Source: an uncultured Verrucomicrobiota bacterium | Lineage (GTDB): Bacteria; Verrucomicrobiota; Verrucomicrobiia; Opitutales; UBA9783 | Reading direction: 5' to 3' | Length of the DNA stretch: 64,000 bases | Assembly (NCBI GenBank): GCA_946186275.1 | Contig: CAMHMO010000005.1 | Span: 5,087 to 69,086, forward strand | Shown here: positions 1-16,892 of the stretch, piece after piece | How the letters are laid out: every line of letters begins with the position of its first letter | How positions within the stretch are numbered: position 1 is the stretch's first letter | Position numbers and translations under genes: made by a program | Notes under the pieces: generated by a model | Databases searched by the model: none | Seen by the model: the letters and a program-made list of their open reading frames with translations, nothing else | Told to the model about the DNA's origin: nothing

Positions 1-1230
1 TGGCAGGGAACTTTGAAAAAAAGTTCCGATACACTGGATGTGTGGATTGATTCCGGGTGCAGTCATGCGGCGGTCTTAAAGCCGAACGGTTGGTTTCCAG
101 CGGATTTATATTTGGAGGGCAGCGACCAGCATCGCGGTTGGTTCCAATCGTCGTTGATGACGGCGTTGGTTGATGGCGACATTGCGCCTTACAAGACCGT
201 TCTTACGCACGGCTTTTTCGTGGACGAGGAACGGAAGAAAATCTCCAAAAGTTCCGCCAATGCCGATAAACCGCAAACCGCCGATGCGTATGTCGGCAAA
301 TACGGCGCGGATATTGTGCGTTTGTGGATTTCGTCCGAAGATTATAAGGACGATATTCCCGTGTCTGAGACCATTCTGCAACATGTGATTTCGACCTACC
401 GTACGTTGCGGAATACCCTGCGGTTTCAGTTGGGTAATTTGTACGATTTTAACCCGACGAAAGATAAGGTGCCGTACGAACGGTTGCTCGACATGGATCG
501 TTGGGCGCTGACGGAAACCAACGCGCTTATTCGGGAGGTTCAAATTGCGTACGAAGGGTATGATTTTCACAAAGTTTATCAGGCGGTGAACCGTTTTTGT
601 ACACTGACCTTGTCGGCGCGATATCATGATATTTTAAAGGATCGCCTTTATACGTTGCGTGCGGACGGTTTGGAGCGACGTTCGGCGCAAACGGTGCTGT
701 TTGAAATTTGTCAAACGTTGCTGAAACTGACGGCACCGATTTTGACCTTTACCGCCGACGAAGCCTGGGGCTATTTATGGGGGAATTCGGATTTCGGTTA
801 TCAACAATCGATCCATTTGGAAGATTTCCCGAAGCCGAACGTGCAGTGGGATGACGAGCGAATCGTGAAGGATTTTGCAGAGCTGTTTCGTTTGCGCGAA
901 AAGGTACAGTTTGAGTTGGAAAAGGCGCGGCAGCAGAAAATCATCGGTCAGTCGCTGGATGCGCAGGTGCTCATTGCGGTCGGCAGGCAACATGTATGGT
1001 GTTCGTTGGTGCAAACGTATCGCGAACAATTGCCGGAGTGCTTTATTGTTTCCGCCGTACATATTACGGAAACCGATGGCGACGCTTGCGACGTGACCGT
1101 GAAACATGCTGACGGCGTGCGTTGTCCGCGTACCTGGCGATGGGTTGATAAACTGGTCGAGGTGGAAGGGCTCGGTTTGGTTTCGGAGCGTTGCGCGGAA
1201 GTGTTGCGGTTTCGTAGGCAGATCTTATAA
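1..1230 (+). CDS. ileS: Isoleucyl-tRNA synthetase, 3' part (5' end lies outside the window)
   Basis: Open from base 1. Motifs DTLDVWIDSG, DLYLEGSDQHRGWFQSSL, KISKS (KMSKS variant), YGADIVRLW and the anticodon-binding domain. Confidence 0.97.
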   Translation, partial: WQGTLKKSSDTLDVWIDSGCSHAAVLKPNGWFPADLYLEGSDQHRGWFQSSLMTALVDGDIAPYKTVLTHGFFVDEERKKISKSSANADKPQTADAYVGKYGADIVRLWISSEDYKDDIPVSETILQHVISTYRTLRNTLRFQLGNLYDFNPTKDKVPYERLLDMDRWALTETNALIREVQIAYEGYDFHKVYQAVNRFCTLTLSARYHDILKDRLYTLRADGLERRSAQTVLFEICQTLLKLTAPILTFTADEAWGYLWGNSDFGYQQSIHLEDFPKPNVQWDDERIVKDFAELFRLREKVQFELEKARQQKIIGQSLDAQVLIAVGRQHVWCSLVQTYREQLPECFIVSAVHITETDGDACDVTVKHADGVRCPRTWRWVDKLVEVEGLGLVSERCAEVLRFRRQIL

Positions 1231-1268
1231 TGAGAGGACGGCGTTGCATGCAGGGAAGGAGGTAAGAA

Positions 1269-1862
1269 ATGGCTTTTCGCGGAAAGAAAAACAAATCGTC
1301 ATCGGAATATCAGGGAAGTGATTTGAAAAAAACTTCCGGCGGTGCTTTCCCGAAGGTGTCGGAGAAATCGACGGACGAAAAACCTTCACAAACCGCCGTG
1401 TCCAAAAAGTGCGTTGTACATACTGCTTCGCTGGCGGATATTCTCGGATTTCAACCGAAGCCTGCGGTTCCGAAAAAAGAGGCATCCGTTCCCAAGAAAT
1501 GGGAGCCGTTTTATCGCAAACTTTTGCGCCTGCAAACACTGTTGACCGACAGTAATGTCACACCACAAGAAGGCGATGAAGAATTGTTGGAGTTTGTATT
1601 CGATCGATCGCGAACGCTTGCCGAGGTTCGGGCGGCGATTGAGCGTATTTTTAAAGGTACCTACGGGATTTGCGAATTGACGCGAAAGCCGATTGAACCG
1701 CAACGCCTGGCGGCGATCCCCTACACGCGTTATTCGTTGGAGGGGCAACGGCAGGCGGAAGCGTTGCGTTCCGATGCGTTTGCTCCGGAAAGAGAAATGT
1801 TTGATACGGATATGGACGGAGAGGGGCTTTTGTACACACCCGATGAGCTGTCGGATGAGTAA
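1269..1862 (+). CDS. dksA: DksA/TraR-family transcription factor with a degenerate zinc finger
   Basis: C-terminal LAEVRAAIERIFKGTYGICELTRKPIEPQRLAAIPYTRYS; only one finger Cys is retained; ileS-dksA-lspA context. Confidence 0.8.
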   Translation: MAFRGKKNKSSSEYQGSDLKKTSGGAFPKVSEKSTDEKPSQTAVSKKCVVHTASLADILGFQPKPAVPKKEASVPKKWEPFYRKLLRLQTLLTDSNVTPQEGDEELLEFVFDRSRTLAEVRAAIERIFKGTYGICELTRKPIEPQRLAAIPYTRYSLEGQRQAEALRSDAFAPEREMFDTDMDGEGLLYTPDELSDE

Positions 1863-2304
1863 AACGTTTCGGATTTGGTTCTTTGTTGCCTTTGGAACGG
1901 TTGCGGCGGATCAACTGACAAAGGCGGTTGCACTGTGTTTTGAGCCGTATCGTTTGCCGATTATTCCAAATTTCTTTTCTTTAACGCTGACGATCAACAG
2001 CGGGAGTATTTGGGGCTTGGGTGCGGATTACACGCAGGTGTTGGGGTGGTTGGGAATTGTTTTCGTCTTTCTGTTGTGCGTTTTTTTTCGTTCTTTCATT
2101 CAAAAACACCCGATGATAAGCGGTTTTCTGACGGGCGGGATGATCGGCAATACGATCGATCGCTTTGCGCGCGGGTATGTGACGGATTTTTTGGATTTTT
2201 ACATCAAATCATGGCATTGGCCGTGCTTCAATGTCGCCGATATTGCCATTACGGGAACGTGTCTGTGGCTGATGTTTGGCGGGGCGATGAAAAAAGGCGG
2301 CTGA
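1855..2304 (+). CDS. lspA: Lipoprotein signal peptidase II
   Basis: DQLTK, NSGSIWG, GNTIDRFARGYVTDF and WPCFNVAD motifs. ATG at 1855 overlaps the dksA end. Confidence 0.95.
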   Translation: MSKTFRIWFFVAFGTVAADQLTKAVALCFEPYRLPIIPNFFSLTLTINSGSIWGLGADYTQVLGWLGIVFVFLLCVFFRSFIQKHPMISGFLTGGMIGNTIDRFARGYVTDFLDFYIKSWHWPCFNVADIAITGTCLWLMFGGAMKKGG

Positions 2305-2349
2305 ACGGTCGGATTTTTTTGGTTTTTACGACATAACTGCCGAAGTACT

Positions 2350-3075
2350 TTACGCCTTCTCCGCCTTTTCGAACGTGTGAAATTCCGGCGTGATTTTAAA
2401 TTCAATCAGTTCGCCTTCGATTTCGTTCGGTGCATAAAGGGAGCGCAGTTCGACGGGAAACGGTTGAGCCATCAAAACGGCGTTCAGGGTACTGAGGGTG
2501 TGCCAATTTGTGCGAACATTCGGGGTCGGACACGTGCGGATTTCGAATTCGACCAGGTTCGGATTATCCATGGAATATCCGTCTTCGCCGAAACGAAAGT
2601 TAATGCCGATCGGCGTTCCCAAGGGAAGCAGTTTGTCGGTGCACAAACGCGGAAGTTTTTTGGAAAGTTCGGTGTTCCGTTGTTGCGCCTTTTTGAACGC
2701 CGCATCGTTATTTTGCCCGATTTGGTTTCGTTGGGCGATCGGAACGGAGGCGTCAAACGGCATGCACAGACCGAAATTAACGCGCGTTTTGGTTTTGGCT
2801 TTGGCATCGGAGGCTTCGAAATTCCACGGATTGAAACCGCGAATGCGGTCAAGTAAGTCCGATGTCACCCGCGGTTCCAATTCCAGCAAATGTTTGATGT
2901 GATCATCGTCGATGCGGTAGTGGTACGCAATCGTCAGTTTCTTTAAGTTCCAATACCAGTAAGCGTAGGTTTTCAGCGGGACGCGTACGGTGGCGAAATT
3001 ATAGGGTGTTTCGGGGCGAAGCAGAATGGCATTGCTGACCCCGAGGGCGTTCACAAATGTGCGGTACGGTTGCAT
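2350..3075 (-). CDS. Hypothetical protein, last gene of the phage-like cluster (possible receptor-binding or fibre protein)
   Basis: 241-aa ORF co-directional with the cluster; no motif recognised; role inferred from position only. Confidence 0.55.
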   Translation of the reverse strand: MQPYRTFVNALGVSNAILLRPETPYNFATVRVPLKTYAYWYWNLKKLTIAYHYRIDDDHIKHLLELEPRVTSDLLDRIRGFNPWNFEASDAKAKTKTRVNFGLCMPFDASVPIAQRNQIGQNNDAAFKKAQQRNTELSKKLPRLCTDKLLPLGTPIGINFRFGEDGYSMDNPNLVEFEIRTCPTPNVRTNWHTLSTLNAVLMAQPFPVELRSLYAPNEIEGELIEFKITPEFHTFEKAEKA

Positions 3076-3139
3076 GACGATTGGAAGGTTGGGTTAAAAG
3101 ACGTTAATTTGACGAAAAATCGGACGATGGAACGGAAAA

Positions 3140-4846
3140 TTACGAGGACGGGATCCAAACGGTTTTCAGTTCGCCGTTTTCCACAACGGCAAATTCTTTG
3201 AGTTTGATTTCGGTTTTTTCGGGCAATGTTGCGGCATTGAGGATCACCTTCTTGTCTTTATCCTTAATCGTCAGCTGTTTGTACTGTCCGCGGTCGATCA
3301 TCGAATTGACCAACGGCGTCATGTGCGGGAAGTACGTTTTGGTGCTTCCGGAGCGTTTGGCGGCAAAGCGTGCGTTCGTATCCTCGGTGATGGTTCGCAT
3401 GCGGTGCGTGTGCATCAACTGGCAAAGGTCGTTGGGACCGAGTTGCTTCGGCGCACCGAATTTCAGTTGTACCGTTCCCGAGTCCAAAAATAAGCGTTCT
3501 TCCTGCACGGGAAGCCGCAAATTGCGCCATTCGGGATGACCGTCGGTAAAATTCAGCGTTTGCCCCATGAAGGAATTGGATAATTCTTCGCATTCCAGTT
3601 GCAGCCGCCCTTCGTAACGCAGGCAGTGTGTTGCGTCGTAGATGATTTTTGCCAAATTTTTTGGCGGTTCCGTGCCTTCGCTGAGAAAGACCGCTTTTCG
3701 ATAAGTGCGCGAAACGGCATCGGTGGCGCAAAATTTAAGGGAAAAGGTTCGGTTTTCGACCACGCTGTCGGCGGTTTCATAACTCACATCAGCGGTAATC
3801 GTTGCATATTCCGCACGACATCCCATCCACGGCGCAACGGCTCCCTTGGTCAGTTCATTCCGCAGTTTCGTCGAACAACGCACATTCGAAATTTGAATAT
3901 CCTTATCCGCCGCTTGGCTCAAACAGGGAAAATGCTCCTTCCACCAGGCGATCGAAGCGATTTCGACAGGTTTTGTTTCCACATACTGCTCCTGGATGTG
4001 CGAATGCGTGCCTTCCAATTCAATCGTCAGCACCAGCGCGTTGAAACCTTCGCCGGCGCCTTTGTTCGGATAGGTATCCGTCGTGACGGTCTTCCAGGTT
4101 TCGCCCGATTGAGAATGTGAGTGTTCGTATTTCAACACGACGGCTTTGATTTGCAGGTCATTCCTCGGAACCATCGAAAATTGAGAACACTTTGAAAGCG
4201 ATAAATCGGTTGTCCCGAGGCGATCGGCGCGCGCGATCCGCAACGTCGGTTGGGACGTTGTGTAGTCGAACCAAACGACCGCATCTGGCGTCCAGCGCAG
4301 AATCTTCATCAATGCTTCGGCGCAACTGCAATCGCGAACGGTTTCGCAGGGAAATGCGAAATCAAAGCCGATAATATCCCCGCAGGCAATCGGTGCGCCG
4401 TGATTTTGGGCGTAGGTCACAATGTCCCGCAAACATTGCGCGGCGTGAACGGGCTTTCCGTCCTTATCCTGTCCCAACAGACAGACACTGCGGGAAACGG
4501 TTTCGGTTTTTCCCGTCCCGTCCTTAAAGTATTCCCACGGTTGCTGAAATACCAGATGTTCCAGATACCACGTGGGTCCGGAGACGCGGCAGGTCGCCAG
4601 CTCTTGCGTTGCGCCGTAAAAGCAGGGGGTTTGCGTGATGCGCCCGCAAAACCAGCGTACGTCATCTTTGAAAATTTCAACCGTTGCTTCGGCGACAAAC
4701 GATTGCGTCGCGGATGTGGTTTGAAACGTCAGCGTGTCGGTGCCCTGATTGAGAACGTGACGTTCGACGTTGAAAATGCCCCATTCGGACAGTGTTTTCC
4801 TCCGGACGCGCTTGTCGGGTGCCTTGTATGATAAAAACCAGGTCAT
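3140..4846 (-). CDS. Putative tail-tip/baseplate hub-like protein (568 aa)
   Basis: N-terminus resembles hub proteins (NQGTDTLTF...WFCGRIT...CRVSGPTWYLEHLVFQQ). ATG at 4846 overlaps the upstream TGA (TGATG). Confidence 0.55.
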   Translation of the reverse strand: MTWFLSYKAPDKRVRRKTLSEWGIFNVERHVLNQGTDTLTFQTTSATQSFVAEATVEIFKDDVRWFCGRITQTPCFYGATQELATCRVSGPTWYLEHLVFQQPWEYFKDGTGKTETVSRSVCLLGQDKDGKPVHAAQCLRDIVTYAQNHGAPIACGDIIGFDFAFPCETVRDCSCAEALMKILRWTPDAVVWFDYTTSQPTLRIARADRLGTTDLSLSKCSQFSMVPRNDLQIKAVVLKYEHSHSQSGETWKTVTTDTYPNKGAGEGFNALVLTIELEGTHSHIQEQYVETKPVEIASIAWWKEHFPCLSQAADKDIQISNVRCSTKLRNELTKGAVAPWMGCRAEYATITADVSYETADSVVENRTFSLKFCATDAVSRTYRKAVFLSEGTEPPKNLAKIIYDATHCLRYEGRLQLECEELSNSFMGQTLNFTDGHPEWRNLRLPVQEERLFLDSGTVQLKFGAPKQLGPNDLCQLMHTHRMRTITEDTNARFAAKRSGSTKTYFPHMTPLVNSMIDRGQYKQLTIKDKDKKVILNAATLPEKTEIKLKEFAVVENGELKTVWIPSS

Positions 4847-5046
4847 CAGTGTCGCGTCTGTTTCAGTTGCTCTTCCAATTCCGCCAGACGGCATTCCAAG
4901 TCGGCGATGCGGTTAAGTTGCTCGTCGTAAGCGTCCGACAGTTCGTTGTAATCTCGGTGATTACCGAAGCCGTTGCAGTAGCCGGGTGAGGACATCATAT
5001 TTTTAAACATTGAGTTATTCATAAAATTTCGGGTGTTGACGGGCAT
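4846..5046 (-). CDS. Small protein with a C-terminal coiled coil
   Basis: 66 aa (a GTG at 5049 is an alternative start); stop/start overlaps on both sides; LECRLAELEEQLK heptads. Confidence 0.55.
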   Translation of the reverse strand: MPVNTRNFMNNSMFKNMMSSPGYCNGFGNHRDYNELSDAYDEQLNRIADLECRLAELEEQLKQTRH

Positions 5047-5456
5047 CACGCATTAACGTGCAGTTTTCCGCCGTAGATTTCATACGTTGTATAGGAAGCA
5101 TTCCCTTTGTAATGCGTTTGAACGGACGCAAGCGTTGCGGATTCCAACGTAAGCGAACGTCCCTTCGAACCTTCCGACTGAATGAGGACTTCGCCGTGTG
5201 CGTGCGCGATTTCGCTCGCATGTACGAGCATGTGTTCGATTGCCGCCGATTGGTCGTTGTGCAGACGTCCGACTTCAAACACAAGCCGAACCTGCAGGTT
5301 ACCGCGGTCGTAGGTTTGAACGGAAGCGGCGCGGATGGCTTTGACGGATTGCAACGTGCGTTCCGCCGTTACGGATATGTGCGTCGGTTCTTCGTTCACT
5401 GCGGTTCCGCCCGCCAAAACGTAGGATTTTTGGTCTGTTTTAAGCGTAATTTTCAT
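5046..5456 (-). CDS. Phage structural protein, distal-tail/tube-like beta fold (tentative)
   Basis: 136 aa with alternating beta-strand patterns (TYDRGNLQVRLVFEV; YTTYEIYGG); ATGA overlap with the upstream gene. Confidence 0.5.
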   Translation of the reverse strand: MKITLKTDQKSYVLAGGTAVNEEPTHISVTAERTLQSVKAIRAASVQTYDRGNLQVRLVFEVGRLHNDQSAAIEHMLVHASEIAHAHGEVLIQSEGSKGRSLTLESATLASVQTHYKGNASYTTYEIYGGKLHVNA

Positions 5457-5902
5457 ACATTCGAAACGTTAAAATCGGAAGTGATAAAGTGCAGTTGCAG
5501 CGCGGTGCCGTTTGTCCAATCGAGTCGCGTCCACGGTTCCTTTTCGGTCAAAACAAAACGACCGTCCCAGAGATTGTCGACGACGATCGGCTTTTGGGTT
5601 ACCTCGAAACTTATTCTTTCCGCCCAATCGATAAACGCGTATGCTTCGTCGTACTGCAATGACTGCGCCAGTGTGAGATTGAGTGACAACGTTCCCCAGC
5701 AGGACGATGCCAATCCGAGCGTTTGCAGCGGGAACGGCAACGAAACGAACAGCAGGAACGGTTGTGTTTGCGCAACTTTTAAGGCAAGCAGTTCATCGAC
5801 GGAAAAGGCGTCGCTTGCAACGACGGTCATCGCGTTTTTGAGCTCCGAAGCTTTGAGAGTTTCAATCAGCTTGGTTTGAATGCTTCGTAAAATCGGTTTC
5901 AT
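5453..5902 (-). CDS. Putative tail terminator/neck protein (Mu gp37 position)
   Basis: 149 aa directly after the gp36-like gene; size and position fit, sequence evidence is weak. Confidence 0.45.
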   Translation of the reverse strand: MKPILRSIQTKLIETLKASELKNAMTVVASDAFSVDELLALKVAQTQPFLLFVSLPFPLQTLGLASSCWGTLSLNLTLAQSLQYDEAYAFIDWAERISFEVTQKPIVVDNLWDGRFVLTEKEPWTRLDWTNGTALQLHFITSDFNVSNV

Positions 5903-5929
5903 GATTATCCTTTCAACGGAAGCGGACTG

Positions 5930-6373
5930 TTAAAATCCTTTCAGCGTCGATTGGCGTGCGTCGCGTCTGCGGTAATGCACCGCTTCGATGCGCGGATCGG
6001 TGACTTTCGGGTTTGATTGCTTTTCCCACATCGCTGCCAGGTCATCGAGCGTTTTGCGCGCCTGTTGGGCGTTGCGGATTTGGTCGTCCGACAATTTTAA
6101 ATCCGGCAGACGTGATTGCAGAGCTTCGATCACCAAGTGGCATGCGGCGGTTTTACACGCCGTCGGAATATGATTGGGTGCCGTCGGGTTCGGGTGAAAC
6201 TTCTGCGGTACGCGATTTTGAATGTACGCGCAGATATCGTTTATAACGGCGTCGATGTGCTTCGGATCGCCTTTTTCGCGGAAATTGTTCACGACCGACA
6301 ACTGGTCTTGAATAAGGTAATCCGAAATATGTTTGGCTTCGAGTAAAGTCCAGGGAATGGAGATAACGGGCAT
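5930..6373 (-). CDS. Head-tail connector, Mu gp36/DUF1320-like
   Basis: Pattern I...I..YI..R...IP..CK.AAC.L....L..R...L...Q....A...L; follows the capsid gene. Confidence 0.7.
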   Translation of the reverse strand: MPVISIPWTLLEAKHISDYLIQDQLSVVNNFREKGDPKHIDAVINDICAYIQNRVPQKFHPNPTAPNHIPTACKTAACHLVIEALQSRLPDLKLSDDQIRNAQQARKTLDDLAAMWEKQSNPKVTDPRIEAVHYRRRDARQSTLKGF

Positions 6374-6452
6374 TGGAATTTAAATGTTTAAGGGTTGATA
6401 AGTGTTAAGGGTTGCGAGAGAGGGCGATAAGCCCTCCCTCGATATGTTTGTG

Positions 6453-7391
6453 TTACGCGCCTTTGACTTTGATTTGCAGAATGTTGGTGGCGGACGTAAC
6501 AACGATATTGCTGTAATGTTCGACGGTAATATCGGTGTACTTGGTGTGCGGTTCGACGTAGACGCGGAACAAATGTCCGTCATCGAACGGCGTTACGAAG
6601 CGTTTAACGGCTGACGGTTCATCCTTTAACAGTCCGTTTTGGGCATAGAACGCGAAGATTTCATCGCCTTCCAATTCCTTGCCTTGTAACCCGAGATGCA
6701 CCTGTTTGATCAGTTGCACGTTTTCGACGAGCAACTTTTCCGCCAACGCTTCGCGCGACAATTCCGCCGCAATGCGGGCGCCGGCATTGTTCTGCGACGC
6801 GTAGCAGTCCTGACGGAGATACCAGGCGTTTTCACTGAACAGCAGACGGTTCGGCGAAAATCCGTAGTCGGAGCGTGCCGTTAAGACGGCGTTGCGAAGA
6901 TCCGCATCCGGTTGCGCTTTTTCACCCGTCCAGGCGTCCGGCTCGACAATTTGCTTTTTGCTTTTCTTCTGAGCCGCTTTGATCGTTTCGACGAACGCCC
7001 TGATCGTACGACGATACTCGTTGCAACAGAGGCGGCGTTTCAGGGCATAAACATAGCGCGTTTCCCAGTCACCGCCGGCGATGTCATCCGTGTCCACGCG
7101 TATCGTCAGACCTTTGTTGAACGTTTTTGACTGGATCGTATCGCCGTTGAAGTCGATGCGTTTGAAAGGGCTGCCGGCGGTGCGAATGTCGTCGCTTTCC
7201 GAATAAAACGTGTCGTTTTCGGTGATCCTTTTGTAGTCATGGCGACGCGGAACCAATGTGCACGGTGCGGCGAAATTTAACGCTTTTTCAACGTCTTCGT
7301 TGCCCTGCGACGTATTGGCAAATTGCGTCAGTTCGGACGAATAGTAATTTTGATTGAATTGTGTTTCGTTTGCTTGTGTTGCGGTTGTCAT
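6453..7391 (-). CDS. Major capsid protein (HK97-fold candidate)
   Basis: 312 aa after the protease and cement genes and before the gp36-like gene; IRTAGSPFKRIDF and KGLTIRVD segments are capsid-like. Confidence 0.7.
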   Translation of the reverse strand: MTTATQANETQFNQNYYSSELTQFANTSQGNEDVEKALNFAAPCTLVPRRHDYKRITENDTFYSESDDIRTAGSPFKRIDFNGDTIQSKTFNKGLTIRVDTDDIAGGDWETRYVYALKRRLCCNEYRRTIRAFVETIKAAQKKSKKQIVEPDAWTGEKAQPDADLRNAVLTARSDYGFSPNRLLFSENAWYLRQDCYASQNNAGARIAAELSREALAEKLLVENVQLIKQVHLGLQGKELEGDEIFAFYAQNGLLKDEPSAVKRFVTPFDDGHLFRVYVEPHTKYTDITVEHYSNIVVTSATNILQIKVKGA

Positions 7392-7403
7392 AAGAGGATG
7401 TGA

Positions 7404-7826
7404 TTATTTGAGGTTATTGGGAAGTGAAGTCAGTGCTTCGATACGATCGTCTTTTCCGCCGCTCGAAAGTGCCAGACCGATGATGTTGCTGCCGTCCGAA
7501 CATTTTTTGGCGAAGCCGTCCTTGGAAAAGCTGATGAATTCACCGGCTTTGACGGCGTCCGCCATGAGAATGCGCGCCGTTTGTCCGTTGTTGGACAGCG
7601 GTTGAACGGAGATGTAGGTTTTGTCGTCCGAGGCGGTCGTGTCGCGCAGGGCAATTCCCCAGGGAATGCTCTTTTCGGGACACGGCACAACGAACTGTTC
7701 GTCGTCGTCAAAGCTGATCAGCATGCCGGCTCTGACCGCGCTTCCCGGTTTCAGACGCTTTGTGAGAGCGCCTTCGAAAAACCCAACGGCGTTTGCGTTG
7801 GACATGATTTTATGGGTTGTATTCAT
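7404..7826 (-). CDS. Capsid cement/decoration protein (DUF2190-like)
   Basis: 140 aa Gly/Ala-rich beta protein (VKAGEFISFSKDG...IIGLALSSG) between protease and capsid. Confidence 0.6.
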   Translation of the reverse strand: MNTTHKIMSNANAVGFFEGALTKRLKPGSAVRAGMLISFDDDEQFVVPCPEKSIPWGIALRDTTASDDKTYISVQPLSNNGQTARILMADAVKAGEFISFSKDGFAKKCSDGSNIIGLALSSGGKDDRIEALTSLPNNLK

Positions 7827-7859
7827 AGGTTAAAAAAAGGGTTAAAAGGATTGTTAAAT

Positions 7860-8819
7860 TTACGGTTGTTTCGTAACCGTTGCCGTTTTCAACGACCGCG
7901 GCGCAAAATTTCTGCGTTTTGTGCAAGCCGTCGGCGGTTTGGATCCGTCGCTTTCCGTTGCATTCGGATAATTGCCTGCAATGGTTGCGGGCGTTTGATG
8001 AAGCAACGCGTTCCAGGCCTCCGGGTAACTTTCGCCTGTGGCTTCCATCCGTGCCCGAACGGCTTGCCCGAACTGCAGAATGCGGCGTTTTTCTTCGCGC
8101 GTTTGCGTACCGTGCAGATCCGATGAAAGCGGTGTTCGATGCCCCGAGAATAGATCTTCGTCGGATGTCGGGAGTAGGGTAGAGGACTGTGTGCCGATGG
8201 TCGATGCTGTTGGTTTGATTTTTTTCACAAACGCCCGACGTAACGGTTCGATGAACGTTGCAAATCCCTTGTGAAGTGCGCCATCGGAACGAACGCCGCC
8301 TGTTTGCGTGTGCGACGTTTCGGTGGAACGTTGCCGTTTCGTCAAAGCTCGCAGAAGAACACGAAGTCCGAAGCTTTTTTTCGGGAATGCATCGAACGCA
8401 ATCGGTTGAACGGGCAAATTCGGGTGTTGCGTTAGACCGACGGAAAGGAGACGTTCGGGATGATAAGCGGTTTGATGTTCCGTTTTACAAAGTACCCAGC
8501 GGGGTGACAGGTACTGTCGCGGCGATTTGGACAGGAAGGTGTGACCGTATTTTGTTAATTTTACAAACACCCACAGACCGTCTCCATCGGCGCACAAATT
8601 TTTCACATAGCCGTAAATGCGCGGATCCGAATGTTCGTTCTTAAATAACGGATCGTCGGGATGTCCGAGGTAGACGGGGATTTTTTTCAGCCCGAGACGG
8701 AACCGCCACGTGCGCGTTTTCCGAATGCACCGTTGCGCGTCGGCGGACGAGATGCTTTGCAGACCCTCCGGATGTTCGAAGGTACCGTAGGGCGATAAAT
8801 GAAGTTTAACAGTTTTCAT
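7860..8819 (-). CDS. Mu gpI-like prohead protease with a possible C-terminal scaffold
   Basis: GHPD...IYGYV...GDGLWV...YLSPRW...LLSVGLTQHPNL matches the Mu-like protease pattern; scaffold-like VRARMEATGESYPEAW near the end. Confidence 0.8.
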   Translation of the reverse strand: MKTVKLHLSPYGTFEHPEGLQSISSADAQRCIRKTRTWRFRLGLKKIPVYLGHPDDPLFKNEHSDPRIYGYVKNLCADGDGLWVFVKLTKYGHTFLSKSPRQYLSPRWVLCKTEHQTAYHPERLLSVGLTQHPNLPVQPIAFDAFPKKSFGLRVLLRALTKRQRSTETSHTQTGGVRSDGALHKGFATFIEPLRRAFVKKIKPTASTIGTQSSTLLPTSDEDLFSGHRTPLSSDLHGTQTREEKRRILQFGQAVRARMEATGESYPEAWNALLHQTPATIAGNYPNATESDGSKPPTACTKRRNFAPRSLKTATVTKQP

Positions 8820-8836
8820 GGATGTTTAGTTTTTGA

Positions 8837-10033
8837 TTACTTTTGAACGGTGTCGTTTTTATCCGTCGGCGGATTGATGCCGAAGTGTTCGCGAATATCG
8901 TTGAGGCTCAGGGGGATGTTCATTTCGTAAAGGGTTTTCAAAATCGCCAGGTCGTTGTTGAGGTTTTTGTTGGGCGAAGGTTTCAGGTGAAAGTAGGCTT
9001 TAGGGAATTCGGTTTGCTCTAAATGCTTTAAAACAGCCCGATCGACCTGGTCGTTGAGCGTGTCGGAAATCATTTGTGCGTCGTCCTCTTCCAACAGATC
9101 GCGTTCGTTGCGCTGTTGCGTAACGCCGACAGCATTTTCGCGCCCCAGCGTGGTCAAATCCGAACCGCGCCAGAGAGCCGCCATGGCGCGATCCATGCGT
9201 TCCACCAGCTTCGGATACGGCAATTCGCCTTTGCCGGAAATATCGATCGCCTGAATATCCGTTCCGGCGGACATCAATGCATGAAATTCCGCGCCGAAAT
9301 TCTGCACCGCTTCGCGTGCGATTTCCCACTCGGCGGAACCGGGACGCGCCTGCGTAATGCCTTTGACGCCGGGCATGCCGTTGCGCTCGCAGTAAATCAG
9401 CCAATCGCGCAGAGGAAGGTGCTTGAACAGATAGGCAATGGAGCACGATTCCATCAGCCCGTCACCCGTGGTAACGAGCCATTCGTCGCCGGACAACGGA
9501 ATGTCTTTATTACCTTTGTCGCCGACGAAATGCAATTTCCCGTCTTTGTTTTCGAAGAAGAACAGCGGTACGAAACGAAATTCCGCCGTCAACAGCGACC
9601 GATCGTCCTTACGAAAGGACTTGAAGACAATTTCGTGCACGGCGTAACGCTTTCCGACGGCATCCATCATCTGACGGATGAGCAACGGCAGACCGCCGCG
9701 TTCGTTTTCGTCGTAGGCGTTAATGCAGGAAAGGTGATTGTAGAATTGCTCTAAAATCTCCTTCTGCCGCGCGGCTTCTTCGGAATTATCCAATGTGAGG
9801 ATTTCCCAATCGAGGCGCGAAATCGACTTTTTGCGTTTGGAAATCACGCCCTGAAGCAGGTCGTCGCGACGTTCGATGGCGTCCCAAACAAGTGCGGCTT
9901 GGCGCAGTTTGCCGGCGTGGAAATCGTCCAAAATGCGCGCCAGCGACGTCGGCGTCAACGAACGAATGGGGTTCCAGTTCAGTCGCGCGAGGCTGTCGCG
10001 ACGCAACGGCGTTACGTAGGTGTTGGTTTTCAT
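8837..10033 (-). CDS. Portal protein, Mu gp29/DUF935 family (398 aa)
   Basis: LARILDD...IERRDDLLQGVISKRK.SI..LDWEI; W..YCERNGMPGV; GTDIQAI. Start placed at ATG 10033 rather than the ORF-track start 10267. Confidence 0.88.
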   Translation of the reverse strand: MKTNTYVTPLRRDSLARLNWNPIRSLTPTSLARILDDFHAGKLRQAALVWDAIERRDDLLQGVISKRKKSISRLDWEILTLDNSEEAARQKEILEQFYNHLSCINAYDENERGGLPLLIRQMMDAVGKRYAVHEIVFKSFRKDDRSLLTAEFRFVPLFFFENKDGKLHFVGDKGNKDIPLSGDEWLVTTGDGLMESCSIAYLFKHLPLRDWLIYCERNGMPGVKGITQARPGSAEWEIAREAVQNFGAEFHALMSAGTDIQAIDISGKGELPYPKLVERMDRAMAALWRGSDLTTLGRENAVGVTQQRNERDLLEEDDAQMISDTLNDQVDRAVLKHLEQTEFPKAYFHLKPSPNKNLNNDLAILKTLYEMNIPLSLNDIREHFGINPPTDKNDTVQK

Positions 10034-10305
10034 GACAAAACGGAAAAGAAACGTTTGTGAACGGTGGCGGGAACGAAGGCGTTCGCGCATAATGCGTTGC
10101 CGACATTCGACGGATATTGATTTCCGCGGCGTCTTCGCGGCGGCGGCGTTTGGAATTCGGGTGTACTCATAAGATTTAAGAAAGTATCTGGAAACGCGGA
10201 TGCCTTCGTAAGACGGGAGGTTTTTTCGGAAAAACGATTTCCGCGGTCGAATTTCCTGCCGAGGCACTTTATGGCTTCGAACGTTTTATTTTTGTCAGTA
10301 TTCAT
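10030..10305 (-). CDS. Small basic hypothetical protein (91 aa) between terL and portal
   Basis: Fills the gap from ATG 10305; its TGA overlaps the portal ATG (ATGA at 10030-10033). Confidence 0.4.
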   Translation of the reverse strand: MNTDKNKTFEAIKCLGRKFDRGNRFSEKTSRLTKASAFPDTFLNLMSTPEFQTPPPRRRRGNQYPSNVGNALCANAFVPATVHKRFFSVLS

Positions 10306-10319
10306 GGTGTCAAAGGTGT

Positions 10320-11642
10320 TCAGAAGCAGGCGGTCGGTCGTTGAAAATGAAACAGTTCGGCAACAGCACTTGATGAAGACTGCTTTCGGTCGGCATGCAG
10401 AGCCAGAGCCAATGCCCAAAAGCGGTCGGCGTGTCCGTCGGCACCGTGTTGTGCCGTCAGTTTCATATCCTCCGAGATGCGAACGGCAAGCAGATCGGAA
10501 ATCAGCTTTTCGTCGCACGGAAGGCGCAGGGTTCGTTGTTCGATGTGTGTTTTCAAATTGTAGGCGAGCGTTTCTTTGGTGCTTTGCGTGAATTGGATGC
10601 CTTCAACGGCAGTACCGAAACGTGCCTGTGCGCGTTCCAGGAATTGTCGCCCGATGCCCGTTTGATCCACGCAGACGCGTTGAACGTTAAAATTGCGAAA
10701 TAAACGTTCGAAGAGGGCTTCCTGTTCGTCGAAGCGCGCGTTTTTCAGGCACTGCACGTGACGGAGAAAGAATATGTTTTCGACTTTCTCAACCAAAACG
10801 AAGGCACTCAAATCCTGTGTTCGTGCGAGGTCAACGCCCATCAGTGCCGTTCCGTTCGTCCACGAGCGCCAATCGCAATTCTTATCGTAAAAGCACCGTT
10901 CCAGGGCTTCGTAGGAGAGAAGCGTCGAGGCGTCTTCCATCGGTTGACACATGTATTCCTGCAGAAAGGCTTTTTCGGTGGCGCAGGAATTTTTGATAAA
11001 ATTGTAATAATCGCCTTCATCCATGGTTTGGCGCGGGTCGTCGGGCGGAAGTTTGGCCTTGAGTTTTTGCAAAAATCCCTGTTCCAATGCGTCCGATAAC
11101 GTGACGCGATGCAGGGAAATACCCTTCGGATTACCGCCGTTGCGCGCTTCCTCAATGAGACGATTGAAGAAATTGTGTGCGCCGCGGTGCGTGGAAATCA
11201 TCTCCAACTGCCCGCCCCAGGTAATGCCCGGGTAGGCGACGTTGTAGAGGGCTTCCGGGTCTTCGTGCAGGGCGAATTCGTCCAAAATCCTCGACCCGCG
11301 CTTGCCGGCTTGGGCATTGATGTTGGAAGAAATCAATGTCAACGTACTGCCGTTGTTGAGGCGCAGGATTGTCCGTTGTTCCGATTGTTTTCCGATCAGC
11401 TTTTCCTTGTACGCCTGATTGAGAACGGACGCGAAGGCTTTGCAGTCGTTGAGGAACAACTGCGCCTGTTGCAGATCGCGGGAACAAATCCAAACGTGCG
11501 TTCTCGGATGAACGGCGGCATTTCGCAAGGCACGGTATGCCGTTGACCACGAGAGACCGATTTGTCGGGATTTTTCCATAATTTTGATACGCGCGTCGTC
11601 GCGGATCCAGCGTACCTGATAGGGGAGAAAGAACGGCGTCAT
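10320..11642 (-). CDS. Terminase large subunit, Mu gp28-like
   Basis: FLPYQVRWI.D, EKSRQIGLSW (Walker A region), ILDEFA (Walker B), ISTHRG, MGVDLART, VDQTGIG and GHADRFWALALA (nuclease). Confidence 0.93.
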   Translation of the reverse strand: MTPFFLPYQVRWIRDDARIKIMEKSRQIGLSWSTAYRALRNAAVHPRTHVWICSRDLQQAQLFLNDCKAFASVLNQAYKEKLIGKQSEQRTILRLNNGSTLTLISSNINAQAGKRGSRILDEFALHEDPEALYNVAYPGITWGGQLEMISTHRGAHNFFNRLIEEARNGGNPKGISLHRVTLSDALEQGFLQKLKAKLPPDDPRQTMDEGDYYNFIKNSCATEKAFLQEYMCQPMEDASTLLSYEALERCFYDKNCDWRSWTNGTALMGVDLARTQDLSAFVLVEKVENIFFLRHVQCLKNARFDEQEALFERLFRNFNVQRVCVDQTGIGRQFLERAQARFGTAVEGIQFTQSTKETLAYNLKTHIEQRTLRLPCDEKLISDLLAVRISEDMKLTAQHGADGHADRFWALALALHADRKQSSSSAVAELFHFQRPTACF

Positions 11643-11974
11643 AACATTTGAAGTTGATCTTCAATATCTTTGAGAACGTCTTCCGACAAAGCCCATGCGT
11701 TGTTGTCGGCGTTTTCTGGATTGGATTTTTGGCACACGGCAAACAGCTGTCGGTAGGTTTGCAGGAGCTTGTGAAGAATGCCCGTCAGTTCTTTTACCGT
11801 ACTTAAGTCCGATTGGGTTTCGTCGACGCACAAACGATCGAAAATGCGTTCCCAAAGCAGTCCCATGGATTGTTCCGCGATATTCATTTGTTCGAGGAGA
11901 GAAGCTGTATTTTTGGCGCGCTGAATGCGTTGCAGGTGCTCCTTAAAGGCGATCGGCGTTTCTTCGTTCATCAT
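11639..11974 (-). CDS. Putative terminase small subunit, Mu gp27-like
   Basis: Directly upstream of terL with ATGA overlap; C-terminus LSEDVLKDIEDQLQML resembles gp27/DUF3486-type tails. Confidence 0.6.
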   Translation of the reverse strand: MMNEETPIAFKEHLQRIQRAKNTASLLEQMNIAEQSMGLLWERIFDRLCVDETQSDLSTVKELTGILHKLLQTYRQLFAVCQKSNPENADNNAWALSEDVLKDIEDQLQML

Positions 11975-12227
11975 TGAGAAAATCAATTCCTTTAACGGAT
12001 AATTTGTAGCGTCGGTGTTGCGGACAAAGTTCGTTCGGAACGAGCTCCACGAAGTCTTTGGCATGCAAATACGCCAGCTCCTTTTCCAAAAACCGCCGTC
12101 GGATGCGCAGCCCCGAGAGAAACAGCCCCAATTTGAGGGTTTTCATCGGCAGCGAATGCGGATAAGCGGCGTCCAGTTGCAACAACAGCGTGCGTCGGAC
12201 AAATTCGTTGAGAACAAATTCAATCAT
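11943..12227 (-). CDS. Winged-helix protein, Mu gp26-like
   Basis: 94 aa: RRTLLLQL...LEKELAYLHAKDFV...YKLSVKGIDF; gp26 position upstream of terS. Confidence 0.6.
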   Translation of the reverse strand: MIEFVLNEFVRRTLLLQLDAAYPHSLPMKTLKLGLFLSGLRIRRRFLEKELAYLHAKDFVELVPNELCPQHRRYKLSVKGIDFLNDERRNADRL

Positions 12228-12236
12228 AAAAATCCT

Positions 12237-12689
12237 TTAATGTTTCAAATCTACAAGCGCGCTTCCGAAGTACAGCCCGACGATGGCGGAGAGCAGATGC
12301 GTATCGAGCGGCGTGATGACGAGCCCGTTCAGCTGAACCCAGTGGAGTTTTTCGTAAGCGGAGGAGAAGAACAGAAATCCGCCCGAGCGTTGCGAATAAC
12401 CGACCGAAATCGGAACGTTCGGGTAAAAGACGGCAATCAGTTTCGGCCAGGCAATGACGAAGAAGACTGCGATAAACGCGATAAAGCGCCGCGTCAGTTG
12501 CAAACCCGACGCTTTACGCGCACTGACGACGGTATGTTCGAGGGCGCGCGTTCGGCAGAGGCGCATCAGATGTTCGCGGTGATGCGCCATCATGAAGAAA
12601 CTGAGTAAGCGGATTCCGCTGCCGAGAAGCGACGATCCGAGCAGCGAAACCAGTTCCGAGGGGAGGGGTGTTGAGGCGAAGGTGTTCAT
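12237..12689 (-). CDS. Phage-type membrane protein (putative holin-like)
   Basis: Hydrophobic segments; TRRFIA...PKLIAVFYP...GLVITPLDTHLLSAIVGLYFG resembles uncharacterised phage membrane proteins; first gene of the cluster (lysis-gene position in Mu). Confidence 0.5.
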   Translation of the reverse strand: MNTFASTPLPSELVSLLGSSLLGSGIRLLSFFMMAHHREHLMRLCRTRALEHTVVSARKASGLQLTRRFIAFIAVFFVIAWPKLIAVFYPNVPISVGYSQRSGGFLFFSSAYEKLHWVQLNGLVITPLDTHLLSAIVGLYFGSALVDLKH

Positions 12690-12920
12690 GTGCCCCGAGT
12701 GTATCGAAAAATGCCGAAATCCCCAACGCTTGCATGGGCTGCAGCCCGTTCTGTTGGCTGGTTGGAGTGGATTGCGTTACGCGGGATGAGGTTTTGGAAA
12801 ATTGATCGAAAAAGACAAAAAGTCGACCCGAAAACGGTTTGGAAAATCGGTCGGTTTTAACACCGAAAAAGGCGTTTTCGATGAAAAGGTAAATTTTCTC
12901 AAAAAAAACCTAAAAAACAC

Positions 12921-12947
12921 TTGACTCTCTCTCTCTCTCTCTCTAAT
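12921..12947 (+). promoter_or_regulatory. Sigma70-type promoter whose spacer is a CT repeat
   Basis: TTGACT (12921-26), 15-bp spacer, TCTAAT (12942-47); ATG follows at 12954. Confidence 0.6.
12925..12944 (+). repeat. (CT)10 dinucleotide repeat
   Basis: Read directly from the sequence. Confidence 0.97.
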
Positions 12948-12953
12948 GGAGGC

Positions 12954-13733
12954 ATGAATGGGAAATGTTTATGCCTTATCGGCGGTTTGGGGGTTGTCGG
13001 AATGTCGGCGATTACGGGATTAAAAGCATCGGACGGCGGTTCGGAGGTTGACTACGGTCGGGAATGGAACCCGTACGTGACGGTACGCGGCGGATGGCTG
13101 TTCGGGAAAGCGAAATACAACGATTACGTAACTTTTGGAAATACAGTCGATCATAGTATCAAAAAGAGCATTAAAAATGCCTGGTCGGGTTCGGCGGAGC
13201 TCGGTACATCTTACGACGATCGTGTTTTTGTCGGCTTGGAGTTGGGATATTTTACGGGAAAGATGAAGGATGTTGCGGGCGGTTGTTCGATTCTCGCAGG
13301 AGGGAACAGAGTTGATATGGAATGGAAAGGGAACGGTAAAATAGAAAATTATTTCGGTGCCTGCAATGTAACCCTGCGGCACGATGTCGGAGAGCGGGCA
13401 TTTTTATACGGCGGCGTCGGAGCGGGTATCGCGCGATCGCGGTGTTCTTACGATTTGAATGTAAGGGTGACGGTGACGATTCCGCCGGCACCCGCGGTTA
13501 CCGCAGATGAGCCCGAGGGAGGCGGAAAAGACAAGTGGCGGTTTCTCGGGCAGATGTTTGCGGGAATCGGTGTATGTCTCAATGAAAATTGGCAATTAAC
13601 AGCGGGCTATCGTTTGCGGTATATACCCGGAAGTTTTCATTGGGACGGAAAAAATGATGCATTGGAAGTCGGCTTTTCGGTCAAGCAGGATATTGTTCAC
13701 GCCGCAGAGATCGGGCTGACGTATCTGTTTTAA
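12954..13733 (+). CDS. Outer-membrane beta-barrel protein (opacity/OMP_b-brl-like), paralog 1
   Basis: Signal peptide, amphipathic strands, AGYRLRY and C-terminal EIGLTYLF with terminal Phe. Confidence 0.85.
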   Translation: MNGKCLCLIGGLGVVGMSAITGLKASDGGSEVDYGREWNPYVTVRGGWLFGKAKYNDYVTFGNTVDHSIKKSIKNAWSGSAELGTSYDDRVFVGLELGYFTGKMKDVAGGCSILAGGNRVDMEWKGNGKIENYFGACNVTLRHDVGERAFLYGGVGAGIARSRCSYDLNVRVTVTIPPAPAVTADEPEGGGKDKWRFLGQMFAGIGVCLNENWQLTAGYRLRYIPGSFHWDGKNDALEVGFSVKQDIVHAAEIGLTYLF

Positions 13734-13814
13734 CGCCATCCCTTTACGGGGCTACCGAAGCGCGGGCACTGTGATGTGTCCGCGCCTTGTGTGTTTTTTC
13801 TCTAAATTTCCCTT

Positions 13815-14150
13815 TTATCCTCCGATGCACACTTCTTTGCGCTTGGTTTTCATCAGGCGCGTGCGGTTTCGCAGTTTTCGCAGGAGTTTTTCCTCCAAAT
13901 CGTCGATGGCGTTGTACAAATTGTCCGAAAATGTCGAAACGATGAAGTTTGGTCCGCGGAGCTCGATGATGCCTTTGGCTTCGAAAGCATTTTGGTCTTT
14001 TTTGTCGACATCCTTCGTGAGTTCCACGCGAACGCGGATAATATCGGGTTCGTGACGGAAAAGTTTGTTCATTTTCTCGTGCACGACCGATTTAATGGCT
14101 TCGGTCAGTTCAAAATGAACGCCGGTAATGATAACGGAAGCGGTATCCAT
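13815..14150 (-). CDS. hpf: Ribosome hibernation factor (HPF/RaiA)
   Basis: ITGVHFELTEAIK...KMNKL...NLYNAIDDLEEKLLRKLR. Confidence 0.9.
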   Translation of the reverse strand: MDTASVIITGVHFELTEAIKSVVHEKMNKLFRHEPDIIRVRVELTKDVDKKDQNAFEAKGIIELRGPNFIVSTFSDNLYNAIDDLEEKLLRKLRNRTRLMKTKRKEVCIGG

Positions 14151-14176
14151 GCCTGTATGTGAAGCAGATTTTGTGC

Positions 14177-15158
14177 CTACATTTCGATAAAAATGCCGAG
14201 CGTATGTTTTATTTCCGACGGTCGTGGCGCGGAGCCGTCGGACATTTCGCGGGCATATTTTAAAATTGCACGTACCAGATTATCTCTTTCGGCAGACGGA
14301 GTGTTGTAACGAACGTAAACGCTGCGCAAGAGGTATTCGAAGCAGTTGGCACGGAACCGTGCTTTAATTTCTTCCTTTAAACGATCTCCGCAGGTTGCAT
14401 CAAAACCGTCAACGCACTTATTGAAACAGGTTGTCACGGAATTGATGAAATCCTCCATTTTTTTGGAGCTGAATTGCATTGTGTGCGGAACCATGACCGA
14501 ATACAGAACGGTTGATCAGGAACCGTCGGATGCCTGTGCGGCAAGGTACCACGGATCCTTATGAAGTTCGTTGGCAAGTATGTCGGATTTTTTAAGATCA
14601 TACCAGGAACGAATGCCGGTGCGTACAATTTCCGTGATTTCATCGGTTATGTCGAAAATCTTTGCGCAAGCCTGCACATATCCCTGAAACAAGGGCTCGG
14701 CTTTGCGAAAAACTGTTAAAGTTGTGTCGGAAAGATGCCGGAAGTTTGACTTTGATGCGTCCGGCGGGTTTGTGAGTTCGCATTGTATTTTATCGAAGGA
14801 CCACCGCGAAAGATTATAAAAACCAAAGATATCCCCGCGACGCCTTTGCCCGGACGGGTTCCCGTAACCGCCGGTGTCGATTTTGGTTCGAATTTCCTCA
14901 AATGACAGCGCATCTTTTTCTAAAAAAGTAAGCAAATCCCGCATGAGAGCGACGGCAAGTTTGTGAAGATTTTTAAGGATTTTGTCTTCGTAATCATTGG
15001 AGAGTTTTTGAATCTTTTGCAACAGCTCTTCCGACGAAATCGAAACTGCGAAGTTGTTGAAGATCTTTAAGTACGATTTCCCGGAGCGGGCGCGTTGCCG
15101 AACAGGGCGCAATAAACGACAACAACATCGAGAAAAGCAGGAAAATTCTCAATTTCAC
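14177..15158 (-). pseudogene. Interrupted gene for a secreted protein (one frameshift and one in-frame TGA)
   Basis: Signal-peptide frame from GTG 15158 (MKLRIFLLFSMLLSFIAPCSA) stops at 14994. ORF 14516-15112 lies in the +1 frame. Its TGA (14516-18) is followed in frame (STVLYSV) by ORF 14177-14494. Confidence 0.5.
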
Positions 15159-15383
15159 TTTTCTATACCCTCACCATATGAAATGTGCAAAAGGTGTCAA
15201 TCGAATAGGAATTATTTCGTATTTTACGGAAAATTTTTCCGAAATACGGTTTGTCGGATATGGCATTGAGGGAAGTTGTCTACCCATATAGGCATGGAAA
15301 GCTTTTGTGTTGCCGACGTTGAAGACAACTGTACGGCGGCGAAATTTTTATGAAAAATGCGGTTGTTTTCCGCAAAAAAACGC

Positions 15384-15412
15384 TTGACGGTCTTTTTAAA
15401 TGCCTCAACAGT
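15384..15412 (+). promoter_or_regulatory. Candidate promoter for tRNA-Thr/tuf
   Basis: A-tract, TTGACG, 17-bp spacer, AACAGT. Confidence 0.4.
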
Positions 15413-15454
15413 GGAGGAGCATAGCTTTTGTGAAAGCCGAAAGCGGCGGAACGT

Positions 15455-15530
15455 GCCCTTGTAGCTCAGTCGGCAGAGCGCGTCCTTGGTAAGGACGAGG
15501 TCGGCGGTTCAAGTCCGCTCGGGGGCTCCA
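15455..15530 (+). tRNA. tRNA-Thr(GGT)
   Basis: Cloverleaf, anticodon loop TTGGTAA, TTCAAGT T-loop, encoded CCA. Confidence 0.96.
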
Positions 15531-16881: not shown

Positions 16882-16892
16882 GGTTTCGTCGT

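Follow-up and report, generated by a model that had tools for sequence, protein, structure and literature searches.

Independent evolution has, to our knowledge, given rise to gene transfer agents (GTAs) in only a handful of known cases, with none reported so far from the PVC (Planctomycetes, Verrucomicrobia, Chlamydiae) superphylum. The element considered here is a compact block of phage-type genes at positions 2350–12689 of a 64,000-nucleotide stretch of DNA from an uncultured Opitutales bacterium (Verrucomicrobiota; contig CAMHMO010000005.1). We refer to this whole stretch as the window (W) and to related loci by L-numbers; coordinates are window positions unless a locus number precedes them, and the block and every feature described within it lie on the minus strand. 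Reading of the open reading frames (ORFs) gave 14 well-supported, co-directional genes, named g02, g03, g04, TerL, portal, protease, g08, MCP (major capsid protein) and g10–g15, together with one doubtful frame, ORFx. An earlier note on this DNA had counted 15 intact co-directional ORFs, of which these 14 stand and the fifteenth, ORFx, is in doubt.

The block resembles RcGTA in being a single co-directional chromosomal head–tail operon in the range of 10–15 kb, free of integration, replication and lysogeny genes and arranged in the order small and large terminase, portal, protease, capsid, adaptor, tube and hub; the model of g12 also matches RcGTA tube chains (structures 6TBA/6TOA). RcGTA-like GTAs of the Alphaproteobacteria are, like the block, inherited vertically across whole clades under purifying selection (PMC10883770, PMC8987985). 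In contrast, no sequence relationship between the two is detectable, the portal, protease and gp27 of the block being of the Mu type; the block is smaller (14 genes, 10.3 kb), contains nothing recognisable as a tape measure, distal tail protein, peptidase or megatron, and belongs to a different host phylum. The head genes of RcGTA are of the HK97-like type. Membership of the RcGTA family was considered and rejected, as no GTA family of Pfam or NCBIfam was matched; NCBIfam includes GTA-specific models.

With the transposable phages Mu, B3 and D3112 the block shares a PF06074 portal, a protease with a gpI-like N-domain and g04 orthologues of the gp27 family, and with Mu it further shares a g10 weakly resembling DUF1320/gp36 and a hub with the gp44 fold. 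It differs from Mu in lacking MuA/MuB, a repressor, Mor/C, gp30 (F), a sheath, baseplate wedge and lysis cassette, in measuring 10 kb against ~37 kb and in having no transposon ends. The nearest cultured phages by portal are Pseudomonas B3/D3112-like, at 25% identity. The Mu late-operon order proposed earlier is borne out only in part: it holds for the portal (PF06074, 2e-59) and, through orthologues, for the protease and gp27 families; the link to gp36/DUF1320 is weak and no homologue of gp30/F was found. The block is thus Mu-derived in its head genes and hub fold, and fails every defining feature of a transposable phage.

VSH-1 (Brachyspira), BaGTA (Bartonella), Dd1, VTA and PBSX (Bacillus) are likewise host-encoded tailed particles whose genes are not self-propagating; the VSH-1 cluster, at ~16 kb, is the closest to the block in size, and PBSX kills and does not transfer. 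All five differ from the block in phage ancestry and host phylum, and their particles and packaged host DNA have been shown, whereas the block, here as in the comparison with RcGTA, is known from its genes alone. Capsid-forming phage-inducible chromosomal islands (cf-PICIs) are, as the block is, compact and chromosomal (~10–15 kb), with their own capsid, portal, protease, connectors and terminase; they carry an integrase, regulators, a replication module and att sites, and are tail-less and patchily distributed. The block, in contrast, has no integrase, att, replication or regulatory modules, possesses tail proteins and is inherited vertically, and it is not a PICI-type satellite. In the literature searched, no GTA or comparable element is described for Opitutales, Puniceicoccales or Verrucomicrobia, in agreement with the earlier note, which knew of none in Verrucomicrobiota.

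We read the block, with moderate confidence, as a domesticated, chromosomally fixed and vertically inherited operon for a complete if minimal virion, most likely a GTA of independent Mu-lineage origin, represented to date by its gene set only. A fuller version of this reading is more tentative and, taken as a whole, falls a little short of an even chance: that it is an order-wide GTA of the Opitutales/Puniceicoccales, independently derived from the Mu lineage, with 14 genes in 10.3 kb, the smallest set known for any tailed particle that packages DNA, a tail reduced to a tube ring, a hub and a coiled coil of 40–76 residues as tape measure, and host DNA shuttled among gut, rumen, termite and aquatic Opitutales. 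The domesticated GTA-like element proposed earlier holds up insofar as an intact particle cluster without mobility genes behaves as domesticated; 'GTA' itself is a candidate label, and the block a candidate for an independently derived, unusually reduced GTA in a new phylum. If this is true, it would be a further independent origin of GTAs, in ~140 species of an order widespread in the rumen, human and termite guts, and fresh and sea water; it would imply that phage particles have been domesticated for DNA exchange more commonly than thought and would provide a route of horizontal transfer in the mostly uncultured Verrucomicrobiota. The very small number of genes with which it specifies a tailed, DNA-packaging particle also makes the block relevant to studies of virion assembly and to the design of a compact packaging chassis, and whatever its function it is a clean example of a phage module under host-level purifying selection. 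A structural-only operon, synonymous divergence equal to that of the host, a single copy in each genome and scarcity in virus catalogues could together serve as a search signature for more such elements.

Distribution across the Opitutales

A search with the portal returned >1000 homologues, the top 120 of which are 52–96% identical; all those among the top 120 with a named source derive from Opitutales, Puniceicoccales or Verrucomicrobia. In a collection holding one genome per species the module had 142 matches, and the best 80 of these fall in 80 different assemblies, one copy each, all from Opitutales, Puniceicoccales, Opitutia or Verrucomicrobiota, with portal identities across the 80 species of 51–97%. 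The closest relatives are rumen metagenome-assembled genomes, whose portals are 97% identical, which makes a rumen member of the Opitutales the most likely source of the window. Across at least 80 species, 13–15 genes are kept in one order, (g02), g03, g04, TerL, portal, protease, g08, MCP, g10, g11, g12, (fibre, chaperone), g13, g14, g15, where the genes in brackets belong to some loci. The module is carried by at least 80 Opitutales species, and probably by about 140.

Among the 2.9 million contigs of the virus catalogue IMG/VR there were only 4 matches. Three represent this same element, flanked by host genes; L091, the remaining one, is more distant (41% portal identity) and encodes a repressor of the CI/LexA type, as would be expected of a true phage of the lineage.

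A more distant compact relative, L087 (1–16000), lies on a 224-kb contig from the Joint Genome Institute (JGI). It combines a GpA-type terminase with a Mu portal and protease and a hub 31% identical to g14, and is flanked by miaA, hflX, radC and an Acetyltransf_11/hexapeptide (lpxA-like) gene. It also holds an Avd-like gene (PF05635) and a protein with an Mtd_N domain (PF18454), a hint of diversity-generating targeting of a receptor-binding protein.

Intactness, selection and descent

Core genes are intact in >90% of loci, with full-length, stop-free frames in 58/60 loci for TerL, 76/80 for the portal, 63/65 for the capsid and 37/40 for the hub. Pseudogenised orthologues, which the earlier note had named as a sign against domestication, were looked for and none was seen. 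The ratio of non-synonymous to synonymous substitution (dN/dS, NG86 method) is 0.02–0.35 for all 14 genes in 14 species pairs from different clades, and so lies well below 1 for every gene, as had been proposed; in the terminase, portal and capsid it is 0.02–0.12, a constraint as strong as that on the tail.

In each of six independent species pairs, the element and the host genes beside it show roughly equal synonymous divergence (dS). Between W and L002 it is 0.2–0.6 for the element, against 0.41 for ileS and 0.37 for lspA; for the other five pairs the medians of element and flank are ~0.54 and 0.64 (L004–L007), ~0.30 and 0.34 (L008–L010), ~0.44 and 0.47 (L010–L013), ~0.43 and 0.55 (L024–L036), and ~0.25 and 0.28 (L016–L017). 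Trees of TerL, portal, capsid and hub recover the same clades, with distance-matrix correlations (r) of 0.69–0.94. For the pairs and clades compared, both lines bear out the host-congruent descent that had been suggested, with vertical inheritance of the element under purifying selection.

The portal and capsid of W share higher identity with the L004 group than with L015. Recombination or mosaicism of the head genes was considered as an explanation and rejected, as four-point tests join W with L015 for TerL, capsid and hub; for the portal the test is near star-like, with long L015–L017 branches. Given these tests, rate variation explains the portal and capsid conflict better than mosaicism does.

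This conservation bears most directly on the notion that the block is a cryptic prophage remnant, functionless and still undecayed. A structural module without early genes is a possible leftover of prophage deletion, but a remnant would hardly be expected to keep 13–15 genes in one order across at least 80 species with portals only 51–97% identical, to retain more than 90% of its core genes intact with dN/dS of 0.02–0.35 even for unannotated genes, or to conserve its catalytic motifs, leader and post-capsid hairpin (the latter features are described below). We strongly disfavour this explanation and regard it as very improbable.

Head and packaging genes

The operon is preceded by a conserved non-coding segment (12692–12826), 5' of g02, which may act as a leader or promoter region. 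It hardly varies between W, L001 and L002, is conserved only in part in L015, folds no better than shuffled sequences (z=+1.1) and has no Rfam match; over positions 1–17000 Rfam found two tRNAs and nothing else, and scans for consensus promoters and terminators stayed at chance level.

The first gene of the module in many loci, including L088–L090 and L173, is g02 (12237–12689), which encodes 150 residues with three hydrophobic segments (hydropathy peaks at residues ~11–35, 61–95 and 121–149), matches phrog_38283 at 2.6e-7 and has a dN/dS of 0.03–0.10; it is possibly a holin-like or other membrane component. The adjoining g03 (11943–12227) encodes a 94-residue winged-helix DNA-binding protein (phrog_436 at 7.7e-6) with 100% amino acid identity to its L002 and L003 counterparts. 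Members of the pooled g02/g03/g04 orthologue set match HxlR/PadR winged helix-turn-helix models, matches that we attribute to g03 orthologues, and g03 may be a regulator or a DNA-recognition partner of the terminase. The stretch 12100–12700, covering g02–g03, is 98–99% identical at the nucleotide level among W, L002 and L003, against 87.7% over the whole element, and dS of g02 is about half that of other block genes; this could reflect extra constraint or recent conversion.

The small terminase candidate, g04 (11639–11974), is Mu gp27-like; its frame is open to 12064, with the likely start at ATG 11974. PF11985 (Phage_Mu_Gp27) is matched by three members of the pooled set, at best 4.1e-6, the window g04 itself being unmatched, and the L175 orthologue of g04 likewise carries this family. 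TerL (10320–11642) combines an ATPase with an RNase H-like nuclease (both Terminase_6 domains, PF03237 at 1e-12 and PF17289 at 6.9e-19; PHROG terminase families at 3e-36). Its deviant Walker A (K24-S-R-Q-I-G-L-S), which follows the pattern of lambda gpA, D121-E122 (Walker B), S150-T151 and nuclease residues D271/D326/D406 are ≥95% conserved across 58 orthologues. The portal (8837–10033), of the Mu gp29 family, gave the PF06074 match cited above.

The head maturation protease (7860–8819) has a Mu gpI-like N-domain, matched by phrog_328 and by PF10123 at 1.2e-4, a value that misses the Pfam cut-off for the window protein, and Mu-like_Pro_N is recorded for its orthologues. Conservation is confined to the N-terminal ~150 residues, the C-terminal extension being variable. 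A scaffolding/decoration-type head protein, g08 (7404–7826), matches the head scaffolding family phrog_673 at 1.3e-10 and, weakly, Phage_cement_2 and head fibre models. The MCP (6453–7391; 312 residues) matches the major head protein families phrog_1005/29/1650, at best 1.2e-5, and a profile of 30 orthologues found 3bjq_A, a 'phage-related protein', in the PDB at 1.3e-4; its family is small, with 299 cluster representatives among 1.84 billion.

Just 14 nt past the MCP stop lies a stem-loop with a perfect 11-bp stem (6415–6441). Of 59 loci, 66% have a strong hairpin (z<-2; median z -3.2) at this position, though with another sequence, and it is probably an attenuator or mRNA stabiliser.

A predicted minimal tail

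The earlier note had described a head-and-packaging module only, a description that does not hold: structure prediction yielded a tube-fold protein and a hub, and sister clades add a fibre and its chaperone. The predicted folds indicate that the block carries a minimal tail as well as head genes, in the form of the tube-fold g12 and the gp44/VgrG-like hub g14.

Next to the capsid gene, g10 (5930–6373) is a candidate head–tail adaptor of the DUF1320/Mu gp36-like type on the strength of its position and a weak profile match: its profile of 28 orthologues aligned near full-length with the DUF1320 protein 8rka_B, at E=0.56. It is followed by g11 (5453–5902), a conserved neck or tail-completion protein with orthologues in 52 loci, a dN/dS of 0.07–0.20 and no match among Pfam, PHROG or PDB profiles. 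In the most divergent loci (L077, L079 and L080, with portals 52–53% identical) an ORF of 770–820 residues lies directly 3' of g10 and replaces g11–g12, so that over the order as a whole the head genes seem to be better conserved than the tail genes.

The folds of g12 and g14 were resolved by structure prediction only, sequence-profile searches of the PDB being uninformative for g11, g12, g15 and the fibre N-domain. The AlphaFold2 model of g12 (5046–5456; pLDDT 85.5) has a tail-tube fold, with Foldseek matches to the tubes of phage 812, the antifeeding prophage (AFP), lambda gpV, monocin and RcGTA (6toa_G, 6tba_50) and to Hcp (E 3e-4 to 1e-2, probability 0.97–1.0). The model of g14 (3140–4846; pLDDT 83.8) is that of a tail hub or central spike resembling gp27, Mu gp44 and VgrG. 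Against the PDB it matched spikes of extracellular contractile injection systems (eCIS), Photorhabdus virulence cassettes (PVC) and AFP, Mu gp44 (9ki1_G, 1wru), the MuSo2 43-kDa tail protein and VgrG, with E of 2.5e-13 to 1e-8, and against BFVD it matched tail proteins and Mu gpP. Weak similarity of g14 to Akkermansia phages led only to an unannotated tail-region protein. At the end of a Kiritimatiellae contig (L086, 5394–7307) a hub homologue of 30% identity adjoins restriction-modification, HipA-like and other defence-type genes; hub relatives thus reach beyond the Opitutales.

Between g12 and g14, g13 (4846–5046) encodes a small coiled-coil protein. Almost every complete locus has an ORF of 40–76 residues immediately 5' of its hub gene, and these ORFs share with g13 a conserved C-terminal motif (..NLR(N)/TRH end). 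The product of g13 is a candidate for a minimal tape measure or a plug. The last and fastest-evolving gene, g15 (2350–3075), has orthologues in 39 loci, is 25–38% identical beyond the closest relatives and is longer in fibre-less clades; searches detected no relatives of known function, and it is a putative tail-tip or receptor-contact protein. Its orthologue in L023 (15497–17026) has 509 residues, with a PT-TG pre-toxin domain (2.9e-13) followed by ~80 residues; that in L057 is also extended (400 residues), without a family match.

Sister clades have a pair of genes inserted between g12 and g13. The first encodes a tail fibre of 400–1009 residues, consisting of a conserved N-domain of ~170 residues and a hypervariable, repeat-rich C-terminus that matches tail-fibre and head-fibre domains; directly 3' of it is a tail-assembly chaperone (Phage_tail_APC, PF16778, 1e-18). 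The pair is missing from the superclade of the window and from three other lineages, and no match to fibre or chaperone was found when the full 64 kb of the window and, in relatives, the surrounding 10 kb were searched. Where it occurs, the fibre presumably mediates adsorption.

These tail features bear on a further explanation, that the block encodes a domesticated killing or effector-delivery particle (a PBSX-like defective phage or headed bacteriocin) whose tail hub and tip would act against nearby cells and in which packaged DNA is incidental. The VgrG/eCIS spike fold of the hub, the rapid evolution of g15, the fusion of its L023 orthologue to a pre-toxin module, and conservation and selection that suit any host-beneficial use are all in keeping with it. 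Yet the terminase motifs, portal and capsid are as constrained as the tail, which would be unexpected were packaging dispensable, the toxin fusion occurs in one lineage only, and the tail is minimal, without sheath or contractile machinery. A killing particle is accordingly unlikely. The block also had no sheath, wedge or Mu gp30/F family match. A known defence system was considered as well and rejected, PADLOC and NCBIfam giving no match.

Proposed mode of action and the question of mobility

Under the GTA reading, expression, particle formation, random packaging, release and delivery could proceed as follows. Transcription would run from the conserved leader 5' of g02 through the 14 translationally coupled genes, with the post-capsid hairpin helping to set the capsid excess. 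Heads would be built on the Mu-type portal from protease, scaffold and capsid proteins and filled, by a headful mechanism, through the large terminase and its gp27-like small subunit, possibly joined by the winged-helix protein g03. Adaptor g10, g11, one or a few g12 rings, g13, the trimeric hub g14 and g15 would then close the portal as a very short non-contractile tail, to which sister clades would add their hypervariable fibre for adsorption, and particles would be released, perhaps aided by the membrane protein g02. With no means of excision, replication or integration, the cargo of the heads would have to be host chromosome, and the element would therefore be a GTA that moves host DNA between related cells.

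Searches for mobility and control genes agree with the earlier claim that the block has no integrase, transposase, repressor, replication, endolysin or att sequences. None of the integrase, transposase, repressor, replication or lysin families of Pfam, PHROGs, NCBIfam and PADLOC was matched in the block, and the repeat search found no flanking direct repeats or att sites beyond chance 14–24-mers; the nearest tRNA is 2.7 kb away. In the seven contexts annotated with Pfam (W, L081, L083, L173, L174, L175 and L087) the flanks hold no mobility or control genes and no recombinase, and all are housekeeping genes: ileS/lspA, valS/Mla, glgA/LysR, ligA/rhomboid, prepilin peptidase, gltX/corA and miaA/hflX.

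Several observations weigh against a vertically inherited GTA. The chromosomal position varies between clades. Orthologues occupy the same lspA locus, as had been expected, within the subclade of the window, and the junction of ileS–dksA–lspA with the element is common to W, L002, L003, L015, L016 and L017, with ileS identity down to 73%; among 33 complete loci, however, there are at least 17 contexts, all of housekeeping type, with flanks conserved within clades and different between them. Moreover, 80 distant ileS–dksA–lspA loci lack an adjoining element: a metagenome scan with ileS, which found distant relatives only (≤55% identity), shows ileS–dksA–lspA to be a conserved host arrangement without it. 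Either genome rearrangement or relocation or transfer of the element at deep nodes would account for these shifts. The pieces of essentially random host DNA that define a GTA are too small for its whole gene set; a T=4 head would have room for all 10.3 kb of the block. Neither an endolysin nor a recognised regulator is encoded in the block, and the window clade lacks, over the ranges searched, a fibre gene that could account for adsorption. Finally, relative synonymous codon usage (RSCU) of the block correlates with that of the window's host genes at only 0.72, the host set being dominated by highly expressed genes of the other strand.

Parts of this evidence also suit an element that depends on a helper, either a phage satellite or a transposable-phage derivative that is not autonomous. 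A co-resident or infecting Mu-like phage would induce and mobilise it and supply missing parts such as fibres, lysis and regulators. Such an element might be expected to vary in chromosomal position and to do without a fibre (as in the window clade) and a lysin; the block is like capsid-forming islands with their own head and packaging genes in size and content, and a bona fide phage with a related portal exists (L091). Against this, the integrase, replication and regulatory modules of known satellites and att repeats are all missing, and the gap between g15 and lspA, at only 45 nt, leaves no room for a transposon end. The element is present in one copy per genome, and in one human-gut species it has the same neighbours in 21/24 contigs read. 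Equality of dS with that of the host in six pairs, congruent gene trees without mosaicism and the near absence from IMG/VR likewise argue against regular mobilisation, and we consider a satellite quite unlikely.

Locus layout and neighbouring sequence

The five stop/start overlaps listed in the earlier note can all be read in the sequence: ATGA at 11639–42 (g04/TerL), 10030–33 (ORFx/portal) and 5453–56 (g11/g12), and TGATG at 5044–48 (g12/g13) and 4844–48 (g13/g14). The g14 start at 4846 agrees with the 97% query coverage of its homologues. Gaps between non-overlapping genes are 9–79 nt, the exception being the 286 nt between TerL and portal. This spacer is confined to the closest relatives of the window; elsewhere TerL mostly abuts or overlaps the portal. 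Inside it lies the 91-codon ORFx (10030–10306), open only in W, L001, L002 and L003, with a fast-diverging N-terminal half and a last ~35 codons nearly invariant at the nucleotide level; its standing as a gene is doubtful. Hardly any variation is seen in the ~95 nt 5' of the portal gene, a segment in which the portal reading frame is open as well.

The placement of the block between lspA and a host outer membrane protein (OMP) gene was confirmed by Pfam (PF01252 and PF13505, respectively). One side comprises the ileS 3' end, a dksA/traR-like gene and lspA, whose end at 2304 is separated from the g15 stop by 45 nt. On the other side stand the OMP beta-barrel gene, which starts at ~12954 on the strand opposite to the block, hpf, two ORFs of unknown function, tRNA-Thr, tuf and the ribosomal/rpoBC region. 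Block and host genes have equal GC content at each of the three codon positions.

In the divergent intergenic region between the OMP gene and g02, a (CT)10 tract (12925–12944) closely precedes the ribosome-binding site and start codon (ATG, 12954) of the former; it is ~2x longer in L002 and could be phase-variable. An exact-sequence look-up of the window hpf matched one 1.2-kb contig. The two ORFs between hpf and tRNA-Thr (14177–15112, minus strand), of 105 and 198 residues, lie in a stretch of lower GC content (0.48) and have no Pfam or PHROG match. Further away, an ORF of 1147 residues (56268–59711, minus strand), without a Pfam match, lies beside a low-GC stretch (0.45), and its region has the sole reversed GC skew in the window.

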